From a virus: a stretch of 64,000 bases of DNA. Made by a program: the position numbers and the translations under genes. Of the stretch, positions 3,097 through 25,150 are shown one piece after another; the stretch's first letter is position 1; each line of letters begins with the position of its first letter. The stretch spans positions 262,762 through 326,761 of the IMG/VR virus record IMGVR_UViG_3300020429_000529. One strand, written 5' to 3'. Below the pieces are notes generated by a model that was not told the DNA's origin, searched no databases, and saw nothing but the letters and a program-made list of their open reading frames with translations.

Positions 3097-4098
3097 ATGA
3101 GAGACCCATTTGATGTAAGCCAATATAAGACCTCGTTCGGATTGAACGAGAACTATGCGCCGAATCCGTTTTCATTTGCGGACTTCACGGAATCTTTCGC
3201 GCTCGTCGCAGAGCAAATCCGAATCCGTCAAGCATGTATTCATGTTGGTTTCGGAGTCCCGCTTGATCTGTTTACCAATGTAGAAGCGTATGATGTTTCT
3301 ACTCCTGCTTCGTTGACCGCTGGTGTTGAGCTATTTCAAGATGCTGTGATTGAGCTTGTTGAAGGTACGATCGTCGATCAGTATGCCAAACTACCAGGCT
3401 GCGGTCTGTTTGTTGGCTTCTACACGTTTACCTCGAACGGGTTGCCGATTCTTGGCGAAGGCAGTATCGCTCCGGGAGGAGTCTTTACACCTCCGCCCAA
3501 TCCTGATGACATCACAGACATCATTGATTTTGCGAAAGCGATTGGCGAACGCCTCAATGACATCATCTTTGCGCTGAACAACCTCAGTTTCATTCATGGC
3601 AAGATGGTTTACGAGTATCCGTTCGATGATTCTTGCGGCGATGATTCGTCTCCTGGAACTACTGGTATTTCATCATCGCCAGGTTCATCGCCTGGTTCGT
3701 CAGTTGGTTCATCGGTTGGTTCATCGCCTGGTTCGTCAGTTGGTTCAACGCCTGGAACAGGATCTTCGCCTGGTTCGTCGGTTGGTTCGTCCCCGAACTC
3801 CTCGGTCGGATCATCCCCGAACTCTTCGGTCGGCTCTTCGCCTGGTTCTTCTCCGAACTCGTCGCCTGGTTCGTCTGGCGGTTCTACTCCATCAACAGGA
3901 ACCTCTGCCGGTTCGTCGCCTGGCTCCTCGCCCGGTTCCACTCCGGGAACTGGTTCGTCGCCTGGATCTTCGTCTGGTTCTCCGCCTCCAACGTCGCCAG
4001 GCTCTTCGTATGCTTCGTCTTACGGAAGCCCGCCCGTTTCGCCTGTCGGACCCGTTTCGCCGATCTTTGTCGGACCTGGTGTTGCTCCTGTTGTTTGA
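3097..4098 (+). CDS. Ser/Pro/Gly-rich tandem-repeat (mucin/collagen-like) protein with N-terminal globular domain
   Basis: Globular N-terminus of about 185 aa, then SSPGSSVGSSPN-type repeats encoded by a DNA tandem repeat. Confidence 0.6.
   Translation: MRDPFDVSQYKTSFGLNENYAPNPFSFADFTESFALVAEQIRIRQACIHVGFGVPLDLFTNVEAYDVSTPASLTAGVELFQDAVIELVEGTIVDQYAKLPGCGLFVGFYTFTSNGLPILGEGSIAPGGVFTPPPNPDDITDIIDFAKAIGERLNDIIFALNNLSFIHGKMVYEYPFDDSCGDDSSPGTTGISSSPGSSPGSSVGSSVGSSPGSSVGSTPGTGSSPGSSVGSSPNSSVGSSPNSSVGSSPGSSPNSSPGSSGGSTPSTGTSAGSSPGSSPGSTPGTGSSPGSSSGSPPPTSPGSSYASSYGSPPVSPVGPVSPIFVGPGVAPVV
3655..4020 (+). repeat. coding tandem repeat (about 18-36 nt units, ggttcatcgcctggttcgtcagtt-like)
   Basis: Direct repetition visible in the sequence; encodes the S/P/G repeats of the 3097..4098 protein. 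Confidence 0.7.
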
Positions 4099-4140
4099 TG
4101 TTTTGGCCGATACACATGATGAAGCCTTTTGGGATGATGA

Positions 4141-5187
4141 ATGTCAGAAGAGAAGCCTATACAAGTCAAGGTTCCCCCGCCGCGTAAGCGTACTGATCCG
4201 AATGCGGCCTACGTCAACAAAGGCGCAGTTCCGGGCAACCCTGACAATCTAACAGTTGAAGACGAAAAAGCCTTCAAGGGATTCATCCCTAAGAGAGGCG
4301 AGATGGCTCTGTATGATTCGCAAGGCCACAACTTCAACATGCGAGATATGTATCGAGGGTCTCAGGCCTTTCTCGTACTTTCAGGCCCATCCCTCAATGA
4401 TCTTGATCTCTCGCAACTAAGAGAGCGACGAGGCATTGTGACAATGGGAGTCAACAACTCATGGGTTGTTTACAAGCCTCAACTGTGGGTTGGAGTAGAT
4501 GATCCTGGTAACTTTGTAGACATTGGATGGAAAGACCCGTCCATAACAAAATTCGCGCCCGCTGGACATTGGCATAAATGGCTTGTTGTCAAAGAAGACA
4601 ACGGCACATTCCGCCGTAGCCAGTTTAGAGTAGATGACATGCCTAATGTCTACTACTTCCGTCGAAATCACAACTTCGATGTCAAGAAGTTTCTTCATGA
4701 ACCAACCGTCAACTGGGGCAACGAAGACAAGGGCATTGATGCTCTTGGCATCAAGGGCGGGCGGAGCGTTATGCTCTCTGCCATCAAGATTCTCTACTAC
4801 CTTGGCTTTCGAACAGTCTATATGCTCGGCGCTGATTTCAACATGTCATCGGAAGCAGACCAGAACTATGCTTTCAAGCAGCACAGAGACAGCGTAAGCG
4901 TTTCGGGAAACAACGCAACCTATGCAAAGCTCAACAAGCGATTCACTGCCTTGCTGCCAGAGTTTGCGGAAGAAGGCATGCGAATCTACAACTGTTACCA
5001 GAAGAGCGGACTAACAGCCTTCCCGTACATGAGCTACAACGAAGCATTGGATCGAGCCAGCGCAACTTGTAGTAAGCCCATTGACACTGAGGGTTGGTAC
5101 GATCGCAAGGAACGAGAACGAGCAGCAGAGAAGGCTCGCAAAGAGCAAGAAAAGAAGGCAACTGAAGAAGATGAAAGCGATCGCTGA
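4141..5187 (+). CDS. hypothetical protein, possibly glycosylation-associated
   Basis: 348-aa ORF co-oriented with two glycosyltransferase-like genes; basic/acidic charged C-terminal tail. Confidence 0.45.
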   Translation: MSEEKPIQVKVPPPRKRTDPNAAYVNKGAVPGNPDNLTVEDEKAFKGFIPKRGEMALYDSQGHNFNMRDMYRGSQAFLVLSGPSLNDLDLSQLRERRGIVTMGVNNSWVVYKPQLWVGVDDPGNFVDIGWKDPSITKFAPAGHWHKWLVVKEDNGTFRRSQFRVDDMPNVYYFRRNHNFDVKKFLHEPTVNWGNEDKGIDALGIKGGRSVMLSAIKILYYLGFRTVYMLGADFNMSSEADQNYAFKQHRDSVSVSGNNATYAKLNKRFTALLPEFAEEGMRIYNCYQKSGLTAFPYMSYNEALDRASATCSKPIDTEGWYDRKERERAAEKARKEQEKKATEEDESDR

Positions 5188-9213: not shown

Positions 9214-10866
9214 TTAGTCGGTCAGCGATCCCGACATGAACGACGAGATGACGTTCGGAGTCGCCGTGTCGAAGCCAACAACATCGAGCATTCCCGGGTC
9301 GCTGGGGTCAGCGATCGAGAAGCCGTTGGAGTTCATCGCAACGACTGCGAGCTTTGCATCCTCAACCCTCTTGGCGCGGTAGCGCTTGAGAGCCTCGAAC
9401 GGGTGGATCGAGCCGTAGTAAGTCTCCGAGTCCGTGAGGACCATGAAGGAGTCGAAGTCATCCTGCAGCGACATGGCGTGCGTCATGGGCAGAGAGCAGT
9501 CCGTGCCGCCGTAGGTGAGACCCGACATCTTCTTGAGAACCTGGTCAAGACGCATACGCGGAGTGATTCCAGCGTCCTTGATTCCCGTATCGAAGACCGT
9601 GATCTCGTAGTTGTTCTCGACGCGAGCCGTGACCATGCTGAGTACCGCCGCAGCCTCCGCGCAGGAGACGTTTTCGATACCGCTGCAAGCAACGCCCATC
9701 GAGCCCGAGGCGTCGATTCCGATGAAGTAGTTCTTACCCGTCGCCTCGACGTTGCCGAACGACGCGTAGAAGGCCTCATCCAGAGCATCAACGATGCGCT
9801 GGTCCGCCTGCCAGGTAAGCTTGCCTCGGAATCCTCCGCCCTGCGAGTAGGTCTTGAGCGCTACAAGGACCGAGAGCGGGTGCACTCGGCTCTTGCGCAG
9901 GTACGACTCGTCCGTGAGCTTGTCAAGAACGATCGCACGGTTCGCGCTCTTACCCGTACCAAGCACGCCGTAGCTCGTCAGACGACCGAGCGAACGGATC
10001 AGCGCCGTGAGCGGCATGCCCGGAAGCATGACCTCCCAAACCTCGCCCTTCGAAGCGAACTCCTTCGGGATCAGTTCGTGCGGCAGGTTGATCTTGTCCG
10101 CGCGGTACTTCTCGATGAGGTCAGCGACCTCCTGAGCCGAACCCGCAGCCTTCATCTGCTCCGCAGCGCGGAGAATCTTCAGGTCTGCAGCGATACGCCC
10201 CGGAAGCTTGCCCTTCGTGACGTAATCGTAGACGCGGTTGTGCTTGGTGTCGCCGAACGGGTGAGCCTTACGCATCAGGTCGCGGTGCGACCAGCGAGAC
10301 TGCGTAACGCCCTCCTCGGTAACGCGCTGCGGGTACTTCACAACCTGGTACGCCAGGCGCGAAGCATCCATCTCGTTGTACCAGCGAGCGATCGCCTTAC
10401 GGAGGCCCGTACCCCAGCCGCGCATCGCCGAAACGTACTGCGCGAACTGGAACAGGTGCGTACCGATACGAGCGACCTTCGGCAGCGAAGCGAGCGCGTA
10501 GGAACGCACTTCGGCGTCCTCAGACGCAGCCGCGATCGCAAGAGCGAAGAGCGCAGGCTCGTTCTTCGGAGCGCGTCCGGCGTCAGAGATCGCGACGATC
10601 TCATCGACCACTCGCTTTCCGTCCTCCTTGAGGCAGCGCAGGATGCAGTTGGCGTTGTCGATCGTGAGCTTGCGCTCGCCGACGTAGTAAGTACCGCCCT
10701 CTGAGCCGAGGATCAAGAATCGGCTGAGCCGATCCCAATCGGAGACCTGAAAGACGTACCCGCCTGCGTTGTTCTTGACCTGATTCTTCCCAAGAGCCTT
10801 GCGGGTCTGAGGAGTCGTTCGCATTCCAAAGTGAGTTGAGTACGCCATTTCTGTCACCCCTTTCAA
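9214..10866 (-). CDS. rsr: Ro60/TROVE-domain ribonucleoprotein (Rsr) with C-terminal vWA domain
   Basis: 550 aa; TROVE-like N-terminal region and C-terminal vWA with DxSGS MIDAS (IGIDASGSM); same architecture as Ro60/Rsr. Confidence 0.8.
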   Translation of the reverse strand: MKGVTEMAYSTHFGMRTTPQTRKALGKNQVKNNAGGYVFQVSDWDRLSRFLILGSEGGTYYVGERKLTIDNANCILRCLKEDGKRVVDEIVAISDAGRAPKNEPALFALAIAAASEDAEVRSYALASLPKVARIGTHLFQFAQYVSAMRGWGTGLRKAIARWYNEMDASRLAYQVVKYPQRVTEEGVTQSRWSHRDLMRKAHPFGDTKHNRVYDYVTKGKLPGRIAADLKILRAAEQMKAAGSAQEVADLIEKYRADKINLPHELIPKEFASKGEVWEVMLPGMPLTALIRSLGRLTSYGVLGTGKSANRAIVLDKLTDESYLRKSRVHPLSVLVALKTYSQGGGFRGKLTWQADQRIVDALDEAFYASFGNVEATGKNYFIGIDASGSMGVACSGIENVSCAEAAAVLSMVTARVENNYEITVFDTGIKDAGITPRMRLDQVLKKMSGLTYGGTDCSLPMTHAMSLQDDFDSFMVLTDSETYYGSIHPFEALKRYRAKRVEDAKLAVVAMNSNGFSIADPSDPGMLDVVGFDTATPNVISSFMSGSLTD

Positions 10867-11424: not shown

Positions 11425-11490
11425 ACTGCCATTGTATCATGGTCCTATTCACATTGTTCGGAGGAACGTGGGATTCCTCATGTCAGTAAG

Positions 11491-11565
11491 CGGGGTACAC
11501 GGGGATCGAACCCGCAGCCTCCGGATCGACAGTCCGGTGTTCTTCCATGTGCGAACTCCTACCCC
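11491..11565 (-). tRNA. tRNA-Asp(GTC)
   Basis: Manual cloverleaf: GGGGTAG acceptor, anticodon loop CTGTCGA, T-arm GCGGGTTCGATCCCCGT, discriminator G; 75 nt; no encoded CCA. Confidence 0.65.
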
Positions 11566-11579
11566 GAGTTCTATGTAAG

Positions 11580-11653
11580 CGAGGCCGAAGGGACTCGAAC
11601 CCTCAGTCTCCGGATCGACAATCCGGGGCATTCACCAATTATGCTACGACCCC
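11580..11653 (-). tRNA. tRNA-Asp(GTC), second copy with U32 anticodon-loop variant
   Basis: Cloverleaf GGGGTCG...; loop TTGTCGA; T-arm GAGGGTTCGAGTCCCTT; 74 nt. Confidence 0.6.
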
Positions 11654-11799
11654 AAGTTTTCAAGACGGCAGACTGGTCTTTCACCAATCACGCAGCACAA
11701 CAGAGCGCAGTATCAGAAGGTCTTGGCGTCCGATCAAGGACAGATCCTTATGAGTAACCCCGATGTCGCATGCGGTTGTCCCGCATCGCTACCGTCAAA

Positions 11800-11927
11800 A
11801 GCCGCTGGCAGGATTCGAACCTGCATCCTCCCGCTCCATATGCGATAACCGTTTGTCATCGACTCCTTCGCAGGAGTATGGGTTCGACGAACGACCGTTA
11901 GGCGCTCTACCGTTGAGCTACAGCGGC
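11800..11927 (-). ncRNA. tRNA-like RNA (128 nt): canonical acceptor, D-arm and T-arm, but anticodon arm replaced by a structured domain of about 80 nt
   Basis: GCCGCTG/CAGCGGC acceptor, GCTCAACGGTAGAGC D-arm, GCAGGTTCGAATCCTGC T-arm; no 5-bp/7-nt anticodon hairpin; insert has a CTCCT-GCGA-AGGAG GNRA hairpin inside a CCATA/TATGG stem. Confidence 0.5.
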
Positions 11928-11947
11928 AATCAGTATTCAGTTGTAAA

Positions 11948-12073
11948 TGGCCGGGGCAGGATTCGAACCTGCAAGATCAATTTATGAGATTGATGTGTTG
12001 ATAACCTTCATTCATTCGGCTCATTGCTGAGCATGTTATCGACAAAGGGTTGGTGCCATTACACTACCCGACC
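11948..12073 (-). tRNA. tRNA with CAT anticodon (Met/Ile2-type) carrying a D-loop insertion of about 52 nt (126 nt total)
   Basis: Acceptor GGTCGGG/CCCGGCC; D-stem GTGT...ACAC enclosing the insert (GATAAC/GTTATC stem plus GCTCA-GCAA-TGAGC hairpin); anticodon arm TCAAT-CTCATAA-ATTGA; T-arm GCAGGTTCGAATCCTGC. Confidence 0.45.
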
Positions 12074-12087
12074 TAAGTTCCTTTCAA

Positions 12088-12161
12088 TAGCGGATACGGG
12101 GATCGAACCCGTCTCTGCGGCTTATGAAACCGCCCTCTGCACACCAGCCGAGTCATCCGCA
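12088..12161 (-). tRNA. tRNA with CAT anticodon (Met-type); 1:72 is U-U unpaired
   Basis: Anticodon arm GCGGT-TTCATAA-GCCGC; T-arm ACGGGTTCGATCCCCGT; acceptor 6 bp GCGGAT/ATCCGC plus T1/T72 mismatch; 74 nt. Confidence 0.5.
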
Positions 12162-12380
12162 ATCTAAACACGGTTTGCAGGTCATTCTCCTGCCGGGCCT
12201 ACCCTCGGATCAGTCCGAGATCGGTCAGCGTTTGCAACCGCTCCTGCTTCTCGCAGGCGGAACCGTAAAACGTAGCGCCGTCTTTCGACGAGCGCTACAT
12301 GGGGCCGGTTGCGGGTGCCGAAGCACCAGCGTGGCCTCCACCACTTGCTCTTTTGCTTGAGAAGCAAGAAACTCGTTCAA

Positions 12381-12454
12381 TAGCGGGGGAAGGATTCGAA
12401 CCTCCGACCTTTTGGTTATGAGCCAAATGAGCTACCAGACTGCTCTACCCCGCA
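12381..12454 (-). tRNA. tRNA-Met(CAT), initiator-like
   Basis: Near-identical to bacterial tRNA-fMet: GCGGGG-TA-GAGCAGTCTGGTAGCTC...CTCATAA...GGTTCGAATCC; 1:72 U-U mismatch; 74 nt. Confidence 0.6.
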
Positions 12455-12532
12455 ATCAATAAAACAGATATGTTGGCGTTGCTTGGACCTTTGTGTGAGA
12501 TAAGTTAACCAATCAACTTCGACCTGTTTTAA

Positions 12533-12604
12533 TCAGAGTGACAGGAATCGAACCTGCTTAGACCTGGCCCCAAACCAGGCGACCTGCCAATGGCCCACAC
12601 TCTG
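12533..12604 (-). tRNA. tRNA-Pro(TGG)
   Basis: C1-G72, A73; anticodon arm CCTGG-TTTGGGG-CCAGG; T-arm GCAGGTTCGATTCCTGT; 72 nt. Confidence 0.65.
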
Positions 12605-12780
12605 TAATCGATGCTTGCTCCGTCCTCACAACCTCTTACTCTTGGACAGAATCGGGAGCTTACCCCGACAGACTTGCCTTCTTAGGGCGTGCGATCGTGC
12701 GCCGAGGTTTGGTAACGCCGATCTTATCTCCCCGCCTAAACGGGTCTCTGCAAACATCATCTGCTATTCGATTGTCAAAG

Positions 12781-12855
12781 TCGGAGTGATTGGATTCGAA
12801 CCAACGACCTTCTGTCCCCCAGACAGACGCGCTCACCAAGCTGCGCCACACTCCG
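12781..12855 (-). tRNA. tRNA-Pro(GGG)
   Basis: C1-G72, A73; anticodon arm TCTGT-CTGGGGG-ACAGA; T-arm GTTGGTTCGAATCCAAT; 75 nt. Confidence 0.65.
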
Positions 12856-13059
12856 AAACAAGAACAAGTATGGGGTGCCAAGGGAGACCCGACAGATAAT
12901 GTAAGCTCCTGCCTTTGACAGCAGTACGAGACACTTTGCGATTCGCTGGGCTCTGCCGATCTCAGCAAGCTGAGATTTACCCGAGAATCATGTCTCAAGC
13001 TTTTCGCGTAATTGATAACCCTACAGCTTCGACCTGTTCTTCTTATTCAGTTTTCAAAG

Positions 13060-13133
13060 TCAGGATGAAAGGATTTGAACCTTCGACCTCTTACTCCCGA
13101 AGCAAGCGCTCTGCCAAGCTGAGCTACACCCTG
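13060..13133 (-). tRNA. tRNA-Pro(CGG)
   Basis: C1-G72, A73; anticodon arm CTTGC-TTCGGGA-GTAAG; T-arm GAAGGTTCAAATCCTTT; 74 nt. Confidence 0.6.
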
Positions 13134-13247
13134 ATGATTCGCAAGTATGGGGCGGCAGAAGAGTTTGGCTTTCGCCACTTTGTGATCAATACAAGGTGTT
13201 AACCTTCAAACCTTCGACCTGCGAGTCGTTCTTATTCAGTTGTCAAG

Positions 13248-13353
13248 CGCCCTCGATTGGATTCGAACCAACTGTAACCAGGATAACCGTTAACTGTCGG
13301 CCCAATCGGGCATGTTGTCGCCAACGGATCGTGACCCTTGCGGGTCCGAGGGC
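13248..13353 (-). ncRNA. tRNA-like RNA (106 nt): acceptor stem and T-arm present, GNRA hairpin immediately after 5' acceptor strand, no anticodon arm identified
   Basis: GCCCTCG/CGAGGGC acceptor; GTTGGTTCGAATCCAAT T-arm; GACCC-GCAA-GGGTC hairpin; GCCC-GATT-GGGC hairpin. Confidence 0.45.
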
Positions 13354-13894
13354 ATTCTAAAAAAAAGCAGGTATGGGTCGCAGAAGGCGTTACGTTTCAA
13401 GTTAACCTTGTTGCATCGACCTGCAATCGTTCTGTGTTTTGTACGAGGCGTGGGATTCCTCGGTCTGTCAGTGTCTCATCTATCGATCATCGGCAGAGAA
13501 GACTCCCAAGATTCCACGCAGTTTCCTACGAAAATCTTGGACTTTATTCAGTTGTGGAAGTGAGATCGACCTGCTTAGGGGCTCAGATTAGGCCGCCGTA
13601 TCAGTAAACCCGAACGGCGGCAATGCAGGGTCTTCTGCACTTCCGTGGCGATTCGGTTGATCGCCAATCATCTTGTTGATGGTCCGTTCCATGGTCTCCT
13701 CGGTCGTTCAGAGAGGGGCTGTCCCCTCATATAACGCAGAGCTTAGCAGTTTGTTCCGCCCTGTCAAGAGCCTCTATCGACTTTTTTCGCTCTCGACATG
13801 AATGGCAGTATACCAACTCAGTCGTCACCTGCAACCACTTCTTCGTCAGTGGCCAGAATTCCTTCTTGAATATCCAAAAATCTGCCGAACAAGG

Positions 13895-14530
13895 TCATTG
13901 GGTCGTCATGCCGACTTCGGCGATCCCCATTTCTTTGCGGATCTCGGTCGAAGACAACCCGATCAGCGCATCATTGAGAGGCTCTTCGGGTACAAAGTTG
14001 ATCGGCAACTGACCTGGCAGATCGTTGATCGTCCAGAGCTTGTCGTTCATGCGCCTCGGGTAGACATGGAACAAAGCTCTGATGCCCTGCGTCCCGACTG
14101 TCGAGTGCATGGAGACGATCCGCAGCGCCGTATCGATACCGATATGGATATGGATGTCTCGGACAGCAGCAAGAACGCCAGTCTTGTCGTAGAAGAGAGG
14201 ATGCTTCGAGACGATCAGCGGACCTTCGTCGTTGAACTGAGTCGCTCGCCCTTCCATGATCTTCGACTCGATCGTGCCCTTGTTGGCTCGGTCGATTGAC
14301 ATCTCGTAGCAGACATGGGCCGTAGGACCGGCGATCTCCGCTGCTCGCTGGTAGATGGCTCGATGGCCGTCATGGATGGGATTGAAAGATCCTGGTACGA
14401 GATGCAGTACCGAATCGCCGAACGGATGTTCGTCGCCGTTGATCGGATCGATCGCGCCGTTGGGATGGCGGACAAAAGCAAACAACGGGTCGTTCTGACA
14501 GGTGTGGTATGCGATCTCAAAGGTATACAT
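13895..14530 (-). CDS. nicotinamide/nicotinate mononucleotide adenylyltransferase (NMNAT, cytidylyltransferase superfamily)
   Basis: GSFNPIHDGH, the (H/T)xGH nucleotidyltransferase motif; start overlaps the upstream stop. Confidence 0.65.
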   Translation of the reverse strand: MYTFEIAYHTCQNDPLFAFVRHPNGAIDPINGDEHPFGDSVLHLVPGSFNPIHDGHRAIYQRAAEIAGPTAHVCYEMSIDRANKGTIESKIMEGRATQFNDEGPLIVSKHPLFYDKTGVLAAVRDIHIHIGIDTALRIVSMHSTVGTQGIRALFHVYPRRMNDKLWTINDLPGQLPINFVPEEPLNDALIGLSSTEIRKEMGIAEVGMTTQ

Positions 14531-15225: not shown

Positions 15226-16788
15226 CTAAGCGGCGGCTGCCGCCTTCATTGCAACGATCTCGGGCAGTTCGGCTCGTTCGCGGACCTCAGCAAAAGTCCA
15301 TTCCTGAACGATCTCCCCGTCTCGGAAGACCTCAACAAGCAGGTCTCCGCCGAAATCATCAACATTCTCATTGAGGGTATTGATGGTCCGCAGCGTACCG
15401 CCATCGTTGACGAGCGCCAGCAGACCTCGCTTGCTGTTCTTGCTGCTGCCGGTCTTGGGTTGCTTGTAGACCTCAAAGCCTTCGCCGTTGATCTCGCTGT
15501 AGCAAGCCTTGAAAGCGCAAGCGTAGGTGTCTCGGTTCATCTTCTGCAACAGAGCGCCGCCGCTGCCGAAGGCCAGGTTCTCGACAGACCATCCGGCATC
15601 GACAACCGCTTGCAGAATCGCTCGGAGGCTTCGCCAGTTGATACCATCGCCCTGAATGACTCGAATCGAGTCATGCAGAACCTTGTAGCCCTTGGCGTTT
15701 TCGGTGTACCCGAACTTCTCGCCGAGGACTTCGAGAACCTTGGGGACGATCTCGGTCGGTTCGCCCGAATCGGGACGAACAACCAGAACGCCCTCTCGTT
15801 CCATGATCTGTTCCTTGAGTTCTCCGCCCCAGACATCGGCGCAGAGTCCGAACAGGTCATAGGAATCAGAAACGCAGGCAACAAAGCCCGTTGGGAACTG
15901 TTCGACCAGACGGCGACAGATTTCTCGTTCGCCTTGCGGACCCTTGATGGTCATGATCGAGTGTTCGGTTGCGGGGATGCTGTAGCCGCTCATTGTTCGG
16001 CTGTAGAACTCGTCCCATGCTCGGAACGAATCATCTGCATCCCAGTCGCCATGAGGAGTAATGCCAATTCGATCGTATTCGAGCAGCTTCTCGAACTCGT
16101 CGCCCTGGTAGAACTGCGTTGTCATCTCGATCGCAGCCATCGTATCGGTGCCTGCAAAGTTGACGAGATGGGCCGCTCCGCCCAGCGCTGCGCTTTCGAC
16201 GCTCGATACGCCTCGGTAGCCGAAGTCATGCAGGCGACTCGGCATGAGGATGGGGATCAGATGATCCTCGGTCGTCATCTGCATGAACTCGAAGATGGTC
16301 TGCTTGCAGGAGCGAGACAGCGAGGCGACGGTCATTGGATACCAGACTTGTACGAGAATGGTTTCCAAGAAGTTCGTCAGCCAGAAGCAGTTCGGGTCGG
16401 TGTTCTCGATCATCATGAGGACATTCGAGACCGGAACGACCGTACCTTCGGGGACGGCCCGAATCGTTACCGGCAGTCGTCCGCCATGGTTCTTGATGAT
16501 GTATCGCCAGCCCTCTTCATTGAAGAGCGTTTCATCGCCCATGAAGTGGTGCTTACAGAAGGCCTTGATGCGAGGCAGATCATGGTAGCCAACGACGCCG
16601 CCTCGGAAGAACCGCTTGAGGAAGTATTGCAGACCGAAGAAGACGGTTTCGTCAGAGAAGTCTGAACCCGCCCTCGCCTCGAAATACGAGACCAGCCGCT
16701 CAACGCCTTCAACATAAAGACGATGATGCGTGATCTTGTAGCTGTCGGTAAAGTTGGGCAACGAAAGATGAAGTGCCTGCGCTACCAT
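15226..16788 (-). CDS. nadV: nicotinamide phosphoribosyltransferase (NAMPT)
   Basis: 520 aa; N-terminal SYKITHH...YFLKRF and overall NAMPT/NadV-like sequence; adjacent to NMNAT as in phage NAD salvage modules. Confidence 0.75.
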   Translation of the reverse strand: MVAQALHLSLPNFTDSYKITHHRLYVEGVERLVSYFEARAGSDFSDETVFFGLQYFLKRFFRGGVVGYHDLPRIKAFCKHHFMGDETLFNEEGWRYIIKNHGGRLPVTIRAVPEGTVVPVSNVLMMIENTDPNCFWLTNFLETILVQVWYPMTVASLSRSCKQTIFEFMQMTTEDHLIPILMPSRLHDFGYRGVSSVESAALGGAAHLVNFAGTDTMAAIEMTTQFYQGDEFEKLLEYDRIGITPHGDWDADDSFRAWDEFYSRTMSGYSIPATEHSIMTIKGPQGEREICRRLVEQFPTGFVACVSDSYDLFGLCADVWGGELKEQIMEREGVLVVRPDSGEPTEIVPKVLEVLGEKFGYTENAKGYKVLHDSIRVIQGDGINWRSLRAILQAVVDAGWSVENLAFGSGGALLQKMNRDTYACAFKACYSEINGEGFEVYKQPKTGSSKNSKRGLLALVNDGGTLRTINTLNENVDDFGGDLLVEVFRDGEIVQEWTFAEVRERAELPEIVAMKAAAAA

Positions 16789-17016: not shown

Positions 17017-18129
17017 TCAGTGGCCGAAGTATTTCATGCTGATTTCCTTGATCTCGTCCTGGGAGGCAAGGATAGCAAGATTCGCCTGTTCAACGAGAGG
17101 GCTTCCTTGACGGAAAGCGATGCCGTAGTTCTGCGGGGCGAATGTCGTATCCGCCATGACGACGACATCTTGACCTTCTCCGTTCGCGAAAAACGCCAGG
17201 TTCGGGACATCGCCAACAACAGCCTCGACTCGGCCCATGATAAGAGCAGCGATACACTGGTCGTAGTTGTCGTACTCCCTGACGATGCCATTGTAGAACT
17301 CAACCTCATCGACGCTGGTCGTTCCGCTGACGACAGCGATCTTCTTGCCCTTGAGATCGGAGGGACCATCGATCCGAGCTTCAAACTGCTGAACAACATT
17401 GAACGAGGTAATCGAAGCAGTCAGCGAACTGACGAGGATTGCAACGCAGAAGAAGCAGAGGACAGCAACGATTCGAGCGGCAACGCGCTTGGGGTAAACA
17501 TCGCCGTAGCCGATTGTCGAACCTGTTGTAAAGGCGAGCCAGACAGAGTTTGCGCTGCCCTTCATGACTTCCATAAAGGTCAGTCCGTCGTCGTCATTAG
17601 CATCTTGCTTGCGCTGATCGTCTGTAATGTAGAGAAGAAAACCAAAGACGCAGAGAGCCGCCAAGAACAATGCGCAGATGACGAGAAGGTTGACGATCAG
17701 GGGGATGCGGACTTCGATCCATGCTTGAATCGATGAAACAAAATCCTGGTTCGATTCTTCGGCGATCATAATGCCGAGACCCGTATTCATGTACGGTTGA
17801 GAGAAGTCGTAGATCTGCTCTCGTTCGAGATTGATCGTAATCCCGTTCATGATGCCGTCGATCTGATTGTCGCCCTGAAGCGCCGTGAACAGGTCGGCAA
17901 AGCGATCAAAATGAACAACCTCGACTTGCCAGTTGGCTGTGTCGCCGATCGTTGACAGAACTTCTGCATCGAAACCAGACATTGAGCCGTTTTCGCCTTC
18001 GATGAAGAAGGGTTCTTCGGCGACGATACCGATTCGAACAGTTCTCGGTTCAGAGACCTGAATGGGATCGCTCTGCGCCGATGCGACTGTTGCAAAGAGT
18101 GCGATGACTGCAAGAACGAGAGTCTTCAT
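17017..18129 (-). CDS. GluR0-like ligand-gated potassium channel (SBP lobe 1 - M1-P-M2 with TIGYGD filter - SBP lobe 2)
   Basis: Signal peptide MKTLVLAVIALFATVASA; family-3 SBP-like halves interrupted by two TM helices and pore helix with TTGSTIGYGDVYP; AGGAGA 7 nt upstream of ATG 18129. Confidence 0.65.
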   Translation of the reverse strand: MKTLVLAVIALFATVASAQSDPIQVSEPRTVRIGIVAEEPFFIEGENGSMSGFDAEVLSTIGDTANWQVEVVHFDRFADLFTALQGDNQIDGIMNGITINLEREQIYDFSQPYMNTGLGIMIAEESNQDFVSSIQAWIEVRIPLIVNLLVICALFLAALCVFGFLLYITDDQRKQDANDDDGLTFMEVMKGSANSVWLAFTTGSTIGYGDVYPKRVAARIVAVLCFFCVAILVSSLTASITSFNVVQQFEARIDGPSDLKGKKIAVVSGTTSVDEVEFYNGIVREYDNYDQCIAALIMGRVEAVVGDVPNLAFFANGEGQDVVVMADTTFAPQNYGIAFRQGSPLVEQANLAILASQDEIKEISMKYFGH

Positions 18130-18144
18130 CTCGGGTCTCCTGAG

Positions 18145-18180
18145 TTTGAAAAAGCCCCTCGTCCTGCGGAACAGGACGAG
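18145..18180 (-). terminator. rho-independent terminator downstream of the PspA-like gene
   Basis: CTCGTCCTG-cggaa-CAGGACGAG hairpin followed on the minus strand by GGGGCTTTTTC. Confidence 0.7.
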
Positions 18181-18200
18181 AGGCAAAGTGAGGGGGTGAT

Positions 18201-24743: not shown

Positions 24744-24818
24744 TGACGCTGAAGGGAATCGAACCCTCGGACTTCTCCTTGAGAGGGAGAGATTTCTACC
24801 AGCAGAAACTACAGCGCC
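24744..24818 (-). tRNA. tRNA-Glu(CTC)
   Basis: Acceptor GGCGCTG/CAGCGTC; anticodon arm TCTCC-CTCTCAA-GGAGA; T-arm GAGGGTTCGATTCCCTT; 75 nt; 17 nt upstream of the GluRS-like start. Confidence 0.6.
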
Positions 24819-24823
24819 TCGAA

Positions 24824-24895
24824 TGACCCCTACGGGACTCGAACCCGTATTACAGCCTTGAAAGGGCCGCGTCCTAACCATTAGACGAAGGGGCC
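24824..24895 (-). tRNA. tRNA-Glu(TTC)
   Basis: GGCCCCT...; D GTCT-AATGGTTA-GGAC; anticodon arm CGGCC-CTTTCAA-GGCTG; T-arm ACGGGTTCGAGTCCCGT; 72 nt. Confidence 0.6.
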
Positions 24896-24905
24896 AGATT
24901 GTAAA

Positions 24906-24980
24906 TGACGCTGACGGGACTCGAACCCGCGAACTTCGGGATGAAAACCCGAGATTTCTGCCCACAGAAACTACAGCGCC
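24906..24980 (-). tRNA. tRNA-Glu(TTC), U32/U38 loop variant
   Basis: Same acceptor as 24744..24818; anticodon arm TCGGG-TTTTCAT-CCCGA; T-arm GCGGGTTCGAGTCCCGT; 75 nt. Confidence 0.55.
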
Positions 24981-24987
24981 ATGTAAA

Positions 24988-25062
24988 GTGACCCCACCGG
25001 GATTCGAACCCGGATTCCGACCTTGAGAGGGTCGTGTCCTAAACCTGCTTAGACGACAGGGC
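24988..25062 (-). tRNA. tRNA-Glu(CTC)
   Basis: GGCCCTG...; anticodon arm CGACC-CTCTCAA-GGTCG; T-arm CCGGGTTCGAATCCCGG; three G-U pairs in acceptor; 75 nt. Confidence 0.5.
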
Positions 25063-25075
25063 CAAAATTTGAAAG

Positions 25076-25150
25076 CACTCCCAAGGGGATTCGAACCCCT
25101 ATCGCTTGGATGAGAACCAAGTATCCTGAACCAGATTAGACGATGGGAGC
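25076..25150 (-). tRNA. tRNA-Glu(CTC), U32/U38 loop variant
   Basis: GCTCCCA...; anticodon arm CTTGG-TTCTCAT-CCAAG; T-arm AGGGGTTCGAATCCCCT; 75 nt. Confidence 0.5.

Follow-up and report, generated by a model that had tools for sequence, protein, structure and literature searches.

The DNA examined here is a 64-kb window, meaning the whole stretch that was analysed, from the genome of a marine phage of ~500 kb (IMG/VR record IMGVR_UViG_3300020429_000529). At 11490-13430 it carries, on the minus strand, an array of eight tRNAs (two Asp, three Met/CAU and three Pro, called by ARAGORN and the Rfam tRNA model), interleaved with repeated sequence motifs and lying upstream of a gene for an orthologue of Ro60. 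A sequence-only reading had interpreted these repeats as tandem promoter or processing cassettes. Our analysis identifies in the array four stand-alone hairpins, U1-U4, resembling Y RNAs, which are small structured RNAs that partner the RNA-binding protein Ro60, and the locus is a fresh example of the known Ro60-Y RNA system, not a promoter cassette.

Read on the minus strand, the recurring blocks are CAGGTCGA(A/T)G, 5-7 nt, GGTTAWC, a variable stretch, CCTTCTGC-NN-CCCAT-ACYTG, then 4-13 nt and the next tRNA. The first block is the 5' strand of a hairpin and CCTTCTGC-NN-CCCAT-ACYTG its 3' strand. The bases immediately 5' of CGAWG pair with those immediately 3' of CAT, forming a terminal helix (h1) of 6-10 bp, which is followed by an asymmetric internal loop and a second helix (h2) of ~9 bp. 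The loop has the near-invariant G-Y-CGAW-G as its 5' strand and, as its 3' strand, ~7 nt ending in CAU. Helix h2 begins at the last G of CGAWG, has the CCTTCTGC block as partner and is capped by UUAAC or UUAUC, with variable inserts after the cap. From this hairpin we built a covariance model, R1, of 66 positions including h1 and h2. The units, their tRNA neighbours and the Ro60 gene are as follows.

9214..10866, minus strand: Ro60/Rsr orthologue with TROVE and Ro60 vWA domains (Pfam PF05731, 1.6e-38; PF25045, 5.8e-58)
13363..13428, minus strand: U1, 66 nt, an "empty cassette" of the earlier reading; R1 64.6 bits, E=6e-12; h1 GCAGGU 13424..13419 with ACCUGC 13372..13367; loop strands CGAU and GACCCAU; h2 GCA..AAGG/CCUU..UGC with UUAAC cap; then a run of eight U
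13137..13226, minus strand: U2, 90 nt; GUCGAAG, GGUUAAC and a 34-nt apical insert; R1 24.3 bits, E=0.03 over 1.08 Mb and 8e-5 locally; h1 UCGCAGGU 13224..13217 with ACUUGCGA 13146..13139 (tcgCAGGT/ACTTGcga)
12860..13041, minus strand: U3, 182 nt; GUCGAAG, GGGUUAUC, CCCCAU and a ~120-nt apical insert without a T-loop; h1 of 10 bp, AAGAACAGGU with ACUUGUUCUU (gaaCAGGT/ACTTGttc)
12460..12531, minus strand: U4, 72 nt; GUCGAAG, GGUUAAC and AACAU; R1 54.6 bits, E=1e-9; h1 UAAAACAGGU with AUCUGUUUUA (AAAACAGGT/ATCTGTTTT)
13540..13573, minus strand: U0, a fragmentary copy (CAGGTCGAT ... AACTGAATAAA) with no GGTTAWC, no 3' partner and no R1 match, probably a decayed unit
13059..13133, minus strand: tRNA-Pro(CGG) (ARAGORN; Rfam 61.4 bits), starting 5 nt after h1 of U2
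12780..12855, minus strand: tRNA-Pro(GGG) (ARAGORN, Rfam), starting 4 nt after h1 of U3
12533..12604, minus strand: tRNA-Pro(UGG) (ARAGORN, Rfam), ending 1 nt before h1 of U4
12380..12455, minus strand: tRNA-Met(CAU) (ARAGORN; Rfam 65.6 bits)

U4 thus sits between tRNA-Pro (1 nt) and tRNA-Met (4 nt), and the gaps from U1-U4 to the next element are 13, 5, 4 and 4 nt. None of the four hairpins contains a T-loop. The minimum free energy (MFE) fold of U1 has the same helices as the model.

The repeated motifs are real, local and non-random. CCCATACYTG has exact minus-strand copies at 12865-12874, 13142-13151 and 13368-13377; with up to one mismatch the window holds 11, compared with 2.9 +/- 1.7 in shuffled sequence, and none of 100 shuffles reaches 11, which establishes the enrichment on which the earlier reading had been made to depend. 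Exact copies of CAGGTCGAAG occur at 12517-12526, 13027-13036 and 13212-13221, with the variant CAGGTCGATG at 13414-13423, and a scan of the window gave 12 matches against 5.7 expected. AACTGAATAAG is found exactly at 13042-13052 and 13231-13241 and with one mismatch at 13543-13553. Outside the array, none of these three motifs was found in the 64 kb, the second tRNA cluster at 24744-25150 included.

The sequence-only reading had placed an upstream motif 7-15 nt before three elements; the distances hold (9, 8 and 14 nt), but the third element, 13248-13353, received no tRNA call from ARAGORN or Rfam. Its downstream motif is also real, yet it comprises two separate elements, CAGGTCGAAG and AACTGAATAAG; the copy near 12515 is an exact CAGGTCGAAG lacking the TTATTCAGTT part, and the one near 13525 is the mere fragment U0. 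At 12285-12300, where a degenerate copy had been proposed, there is CCCCAT and a 7-bp hairpin (GTAGCGC/GCGCTAC) with no invariant CGA, and its R1 score of 3.5 bits is noise. The 540-nt stretch taken as non-coding contains a conserved 34-codon open reading frame (ORF) and one complete hairpin, U1. Modular repeats do surround the tRNAs, and some units are tRNA-free, but the motifs do not flank tRNA cargo: the supposed upstream and downstream flanks are the 3' and 5' strands of one hairpin lying between tRNAs. The "empty cassettes" are Y-like hairpins that are themselves the genes, with the tRNAs as neighbours, and gain and loss of tRNAs by a duplicated cassette is a mostly wrong description of the array.

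Pairing and conservation of the hairpin units

Viral Ro60 loci for comparison were obtained by an alignment-based scan of viral contigs; a single-protein Ro60 scan of viral contigs returned nothing, and a DNA search of phage genomes gave matches limited to tRNAs. R1 was run over the window and 77 Ro60-centred viral loci (1.08 Mb in all, E<=1) and over 80 bacterial Ro60 loci (E<=0.1). The 78 viral sources yielded 69 matches, every one on the Ro60 strand and most within ~2 kb of the gene, and the bacterial loci yielded 28, again all on the Ro60 strand and adjoining the gene. Within the window, R1 matches U1, U4 and U2 only, all inside the array. A strict motif, CGAWR-N3-10-GRTTAWC, displays the same strand bias, with 107 occurrences on the Ro60 strand to 7 on the opposite strand in the viral loci and 39 to 2 in the bacterial ones.

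Paired cells over the 69 matches amount to 88.7%, compared with 59.6% after shuffling and ~40% with slid partners, both-side changes occur at 17 of the 18 pairs, and the covariation score is 0.79 versus 0.26 (reached by none of 500 shuffles), although these pair counts come from an alignment, A3, that was fitted to the model and is biased in its favor. An unfitted MAFFT alignment of 8 short units, analysed with RNAalifold, also predicts h1, 8 of whose 9 pairs show compensatory changes. Positions 6-8 of h1, which were not used for unit selection, are paired in 17, 17 and 14 of 18 units. In L001, a contig from a related phage with a Ro60 of 64% identity, the unit reads ATGAGC|CGATG ... TACAT|GCTCAT, so that 5 of the 6 h1 pairs are altered on both sides relative to the window. 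Retention of pairing between GCAGGT/ACCTGC in the window and ATGAGC/GCTCAT in L001 is the signature of an RNA structure and not of a -10 box.

Among the unpaired positions, G-Y-C-G-A-W-G and UUA-N-C are invariant or nearly so across the 69 matches, with the C and G of CGA present in all 69, and the 3' loop strand ends in (C/A)AC(A/U)U. These comparisons show the structure of the RNA, its conserved loop and its linkage to Ro60 in both position and strand. Abutment to tRNAs recurs in other loci and is not universal, with 13 of the 69 matches (window included) ending <=15 nt before a tRNA. A pairing of CAGGUCGAAG with the tRNA trailer CUUUGACAACUG, which would place the tRNA inside the Y stem, was considered and rejected: there is no compensation in the L005 variant AAGTG, some L001 units have no tRNA between them, and covariation favors the partner on the CCCAU side.

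Association with Ro60 and alternative explanations

The product of 9214-10866 matches Xenopus Ro60 (1YVP, E=5e-119) and D. radiodurans Rsr (2e-103) and is the presumed protein partner of the array RNAs. Its gene lies 1.6-2.6 kb downstream of the units (12460-13428) on the same strand. Bacterial Y RNAs are recognized by their position near Ro60 (within 4 kb) on the same strand, by a 5' motif GNCGAAN0-1G that is thought to contact Ro60, and by a conserved YUAY ~8 nt after it (Chen et al. 2014, PMC4201824). The array units lie within 4 kb of Ro60 on its strand. They carry GTCGAAG in U2, U3 and U4, with U1 deviating at one position, and have UUAWC where the published YUAY is expected; GTCGAAG...GGUUAUC fits the published features (PMC4201824). 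They also adopt a stem-bulge-stem form, in which a stem formed by the ends flanks the motif loop, and both h1 and h2 covary. We consider the units to be phage Y RNA-like genes whose RNAs are predicted to bind Ro60, with a probability of about 0.8.

An experimental precedent is Thermus phage phiLo, whose Ro60 binds two hairpins encoded upstream of it, Yrl1 and Yrl2; these hairpins also form complexes with the host PNPase (PMC12135203). The Yrl hairpins consist of a 5'-3' stem flanking an internal loop that bears CGAA (PMC12135203). The likeness lies in phage hairpins upstream of a phage Ro60 and in the stem with a CGAA-bearing loop, binding having been demonstrated in phiLo; a difference is that no interleaving with tRNAs is reported there (PMC12135203).

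Several observations weigh against the assignment of the units as Y RNAs, and the bias of alignment A3 belongs among them. The motif of U1, GTCGATG, departs at one position from the strict published motif; the U at this position is shared by 20 of the 69 family members. U3 was missed by R1 because of its insert, and is recognized by its motifs and h1 alone. Whole-unit folding energies of U2 and U3 are no better than those of shuffles (z = +0.8 and -0.45), indicating that thermodynamics alone would not reveal these units. Rfam, searched over the array at E<=10, has no Y RNA family matching U1-U4, and the YrlA family RF02553 stays below its gathering score of 69 bits, its sole match reaching 24.2 bits at 11904-11974. 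R1 does not match the experimentally bound Yrl RNAs of phiLo, with which there is no detectable sequence similarity, and the Ro60 of phiLo is a TROVE protein only remotely related (E=5e-7). For this array, finally, we infer both Ro60 binding and the RNA ends from sequence.

Among the other explanations, the one that survives best holds that the hairpins guide the processing of tRNA leaders or trailers, for instance as entry sites for RNase III or RNase E, and are unconnected with Ro60. The hairpins do lie 1-13 nt from tRNAs in an array rich in them, but 52 of the 69 R1 matches have no tRNA within 100 nt downstream and yet are all Ro60-adjacent and on its strand. Moreover, the second tRNA cluster (24744-25150) has no such hairpins, and the unpaired bases that are invariant agree with the motif published for Ro60 contact (PMC4201824). 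We regard such a role without Ro60 as improbable.

The tandem-cassette explanation, in which promoter or processing elements flank tRNA cargo and CATACT serves as a -10 box or RNase signal, has to be weighed together with a further motif, TTGACAAYTGAATA, which occupies the spacers.

13233..13246, minus strand: inter-unit spacer motif TTGACAACTGAATA
13044..13057, minus strand: inter-unit spacer motif TTGAAAACTGAATA
12765-12778, 11934-11947 and 13545-13558, minus strand: further TTGACAAYTGAATA copies in the window
L001 4730; L004 571/1304/1991; L009 6237; L010 6747; L015 5850/6232; L086 4435: TTGACAAYTGAATA in related loci

Over all loci, TTGACAAYTGAATA favors the Ro60 strand (24 copies, against 3 on the other), and it is absent elsewhere in the window. 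It lies between RNA units, ending 0-10 nt before the next RNA, and is conserved as sequence only, its variants not compensating as those of a helix would. The cassette explanation gains from the fixed short distances between the motifs and the tRNA 5' ends, and from the perfect TTGACA that this sequence-conserved, inter-unit spacer holds. Against it, the next RNA follows TTGACA at only 8-14 nt, a spacing that does not suit a -35 box, and a sigma-70 scan found no minus-strand site with -35 and -10 boxes at 16-18 bp spacing. CATACT is not conserved as DNA, reading CATGCT in L001; the core varies in step with its pairing partner, and the flanks covary with a partner 46-162 nt upstream. The motifs are also confined to the array, the second tRNA cluster lacking them. 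These points make promoter cassettes slightly less credible still than processing guides, and TTGACAAYTGAATA is left as the sole remaining candidate for a processing or promoter signal, of which a processing site seems more likely.

It is highly unlikely that tandem duplication, or a small mobile repeat, left these copies behind as remnants with no function. Fragmentary copies do exist (U0 and the CCCCAT with its hairpin at ~12271-12299), but compensatory changes preserve the structure across genomes in which Ro60 is just 42-64% identical. The inter-unit spacers, in contrast, have no detectable similarity: blastn of spacers and apical inserts against the related loci (L001-L087) found none, and a module kept while its spacers diverge points to selection on the module itself. 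A role as intrinsic terminators or attenuators separating the tRNA genes is just as hard to credit, since the eight-U run after U1 has no counterpart in U2-U4 or in the homologues, including the L001 counterpart of U1, a scan for a hairpin followed by a U run was negative at the units, and conserved internal-loop bases would be unexpected in a terminator.

Known Y RNAs and the tRNA-shaped elements

The resemblance of the units to the YrlA/YrlB type (PMC4201824; Rfam RF02553) lies in their position near Ro60 on its strand, in GNCGAAG followed by YUAY, and in the terminal stem formed by the ends. Unlike YrlA, U1-U4 have no tRNA-like domain of T arm, acceptor stem and D arm, and most are minimal forms of 66-90 nt compared with the usual 80-130 nt. 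The arrangement of YrlA, with T arm, closed acceptor stem-loop and D arm within the Ro-binding stem, is found in neither U1-U4 nor the elements A-C described below. Some bacterial Y RNA genes have already been noted next to tRNA genes (10.1101/312249); the present locus differs from YrlA/YrlB loci in having four stand-alone copies and three chimeras in one array that abuts tRNAs.

A link between the two forms is provided by mycobacteriophage Bxz1 (L086), in which three successive Y modules, unannotated in the record, lie at 4077-4425 upstream of the Ro gene.

L086 4077-4153: hairpin, R1-type
L086 ~4171-4325: YrlA-type module
L086 ~4345-4425: hairpin, R1-type

The YrlA tRNA-like domain found by Rfam in Bxz1 lies inside a unit GGCAGGC|CGAGAG..GGTTACC ... 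CCACCAT|GTCTGCC. Because it occupies the same frame, U1-U4 are, as far as sequence allows, minimal YrlB-like versions of the Ro-binding module of YrlA.

Metazoan Y RNAs and stem-bulge RNAs (RF00019, RF01656) likewise have a terminal stem and a bulged loop that contacts Ro60, the vertebrate GGUCCGA resembling G-Y-CGAW of the array; they differ in being RNA polymerase III products that end in a U tract and do not derive from a bacterial polycistron. RF01656, the nematode stem-bulge RNA family (ceN72-3/ceN74-2), whose members are regarded as Y RNA homologues, reaches its gathering score on two R1-type hairpins beside Ro60, both of them also R1 matches.

L058 8772-8844: RF01656 match in a phage
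L093 1962-2031: RF01656 match in a bacterial locus

Neither RF00019 nor RF01656 matches the window's own units at E<=10. Another conserved non-coding block, CCGGCAGGTCGAGG...CCTTGACACAGACGCAGGG..., occurs at L004 236-330 and L005 3040-3150 and is absent from the window; within it, GGTCGAGG and CTTGAC look like the two halves of the stem in vertebrate Y RNAs.

Three further elements of the array combine a Y module with parts of a tRNA.

13248..13353, minus strand: element A, with a 7-bp acceptor stem GCCCUCG/CGAGGGC and a T arm (from sequence and fold)
11948..12073, minus strand: element B (from sequence, the ARAGORN intron option and motif scan)
11800..11927, minus strand: element C (Rfam tRNA, 50.9 bits, with a large insert)

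In element A, the Y module AACAU-GCCC-gauu-GGGC-CGACAG-..-GGUUAUC stands at the position of the anticodon arm, a GC hairpin replaces the D arm and a motif and hairpin scan places the T-loop 13 nt after GGTTATC. ARAGORN and Rfam do not recognize element A as a canonical tRNA; it shows an acceptor stem, T arm and Y module only. Element B carries AACAU-GCUCA-gcaa-UGAGC-CGAAUG-..-GGUUAUC between the D arm and an anticodon-like arm, and in element C CCCAU-ACUCCU-gcga-AGGAGU-CGAUGA-..-GGUUAUC substitutes for the anticodon loop. The T-loop follows GGTTATC by 13-31 nt in the three elements and by 19-23 nt in most homologues. An alignment of 10 homologues displays compensatory changes at 7 of 7 pairs of the acceptor stem.

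The published description of YrlA is of a permuted tRNA whose acceptor stem is closed. In elements A-C the topology is the reverse, with an acceptor stem open at the RNA ends and an h1 closed by a tetraloop, which makes them an exact circular permutation of YrlA; they differ from Yrn1 as well. We tentatively propose, at somewhat less than even odds, that A-C represent a third, undescribed tRNA-like Y RNA topology, in which a module predicted to bind Ro60 sits at the anticodon-arm position of a tRNA in normal order. No description of this topology was found in the Y RNA literature covered, two reviews falling outside that coverage, and the topology is the part of the finding likeliest to be new. 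Related chimeras occur in phages and bacteria (L001 5305-6170, L004 681-2792, L094 5107-6553), and they stand beside Ro60 in many phages and in bacterial loci (Polyangiaceae, Armatimonadota, Chloroflexota) in which Rfam finds no YrlA.

In the tandem of B and C, the two Y modules are separated by a T arm, a spacer and a D arm. A "dimeric tRNA" model has been advanced for the origin of YrlA (10.1101/312249), and the B-C arrangement is what that model predicts; Rfam YrlA weakly matches this very junction, its 24.2-bit match covering the T arm of B together with the D arm of C.

Proposed processing, neighborhood and significance

Release of small RNAs by tRNA punctuation is familiar from the mitochondrial punctuation model, plant tRNA-snoRNA dicistrons and the tRNA-miRNA units of MHV68. 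There, as in the array, the small RNA abuts a tRNA, and RNase P or RNase Z would set its ends; for the array, the resemblance goes no further than an analogy of mechanism. The hairpins would be co-transcribed with the interleaved tRNAs. RNase P cutting at a tRNA 5' end, 4-13 nt past h1, would then generate the hairpin 3' end, while tRNA 3' processing, possibly together with a cut in the AU-rich TTGACAAYTGAATA, would generate the 5' end. Processing next to the CCCAT-side motif is probable because the tRNA 5' ends, at which RNase P cuts, follow the hairpins by 4-13 nt. The conserved loop would subsequently be bound by the phage Ro60, and by analogy with known particles the complex may gate Ro60 or tether it to host enzymes such as PNPase.

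Other features of the array and its surroundings are recorded here as observations in their own right. The 217-nt spacer between two tRNA-Met genes (12163-12379, minus strand) behaves as a structured RNA, with a folding z of -3.7 matched by 0 of 200 shuffles; it contains CCCCAU and a 7-bp hairpin, has no CGA, and by blastn has no similarity in related loci. The 34-codon ORF at 13588-13692 (minus strand) follows GAGGAGA; L001 has a 40-codon ORF in the corresponding position, with 41% identity and a common tail, LPPF..D.AA. Just upstream of the first Y unit, three genomes carry TGCGTGGAATC, 24-25 nt and CGATAG, with fixed spacing and variable intervening sequence.

~13470-13511, minus strand: TGCGTGGAATC block in the window
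L001 ~4383-4425: the same block
L005 ~1733-1775: the same block

This block may be the array promoter or another RNA. An exact 13-nt repeat, CGTGGGATTCCTC (plus strand), at 13449-13461 and 11467-11479, brackets the whole array; read on the minus strand, either copy supplies the loop of a small hairpin together with its 5' arm.

Directly upstream of the array on the minus strand lies a pair of NAD-salvage genes, NAMPT (15226-16788) and a cytidylyltransferase-like gene (13895-14530). Farther upstream, 17017-18186 (minus strand) encodes a glutamate-receptor-like protein with ligand-gated ion-channel and solute-binding domains, which is unusual in a phage. A Pfam scan of 20 neighboring proteins found no RNA-repair partners (RtcB, ligases). 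The second tRNA cluster, 24744-25150 (minus strand), holds five tRNA-Glu, Rfam adding 24906-24980 to the four called by ARAGORN, and has no Y motifs. In some bacterial genome bins (Gaiellaceae, Chloroflexia), Ro60 stands in or beside arrays of up to ~20 tRNA genes (L105 1301-5203, L093 301-1096).

In terms of annotation, repeats that had occupied ~1.5 kb with no explanation can now be assigned to a Ro60-Y RNA locus, in which eight tRNAs are interspersed with at least seven Y modules. The signature of G-Y-CGAW-G, h2, UUAWC, CAU and the h1 partner, combined with a small covariance model, finds phage and bacterial Ro60-linked RNAs that are missed by Rfam YrlA. The units lie directly against tRNAs, which suggests that enzymes of tRNA processing set their RNAs free. 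If the proposed topology is correct, the free acceptor ends of the chimeras would allow RNase P processing, CCA addition and possibly charging, and chimeras and minimal hairpins alike would be released from a tRNA-punctuated precursor. The tRNA-shaped chimeras are also relevant to the proposal that Y RNAs arose from tRNAs, and they may show how phages link Ro60 to tRNA metabolism or to host RNA decay.

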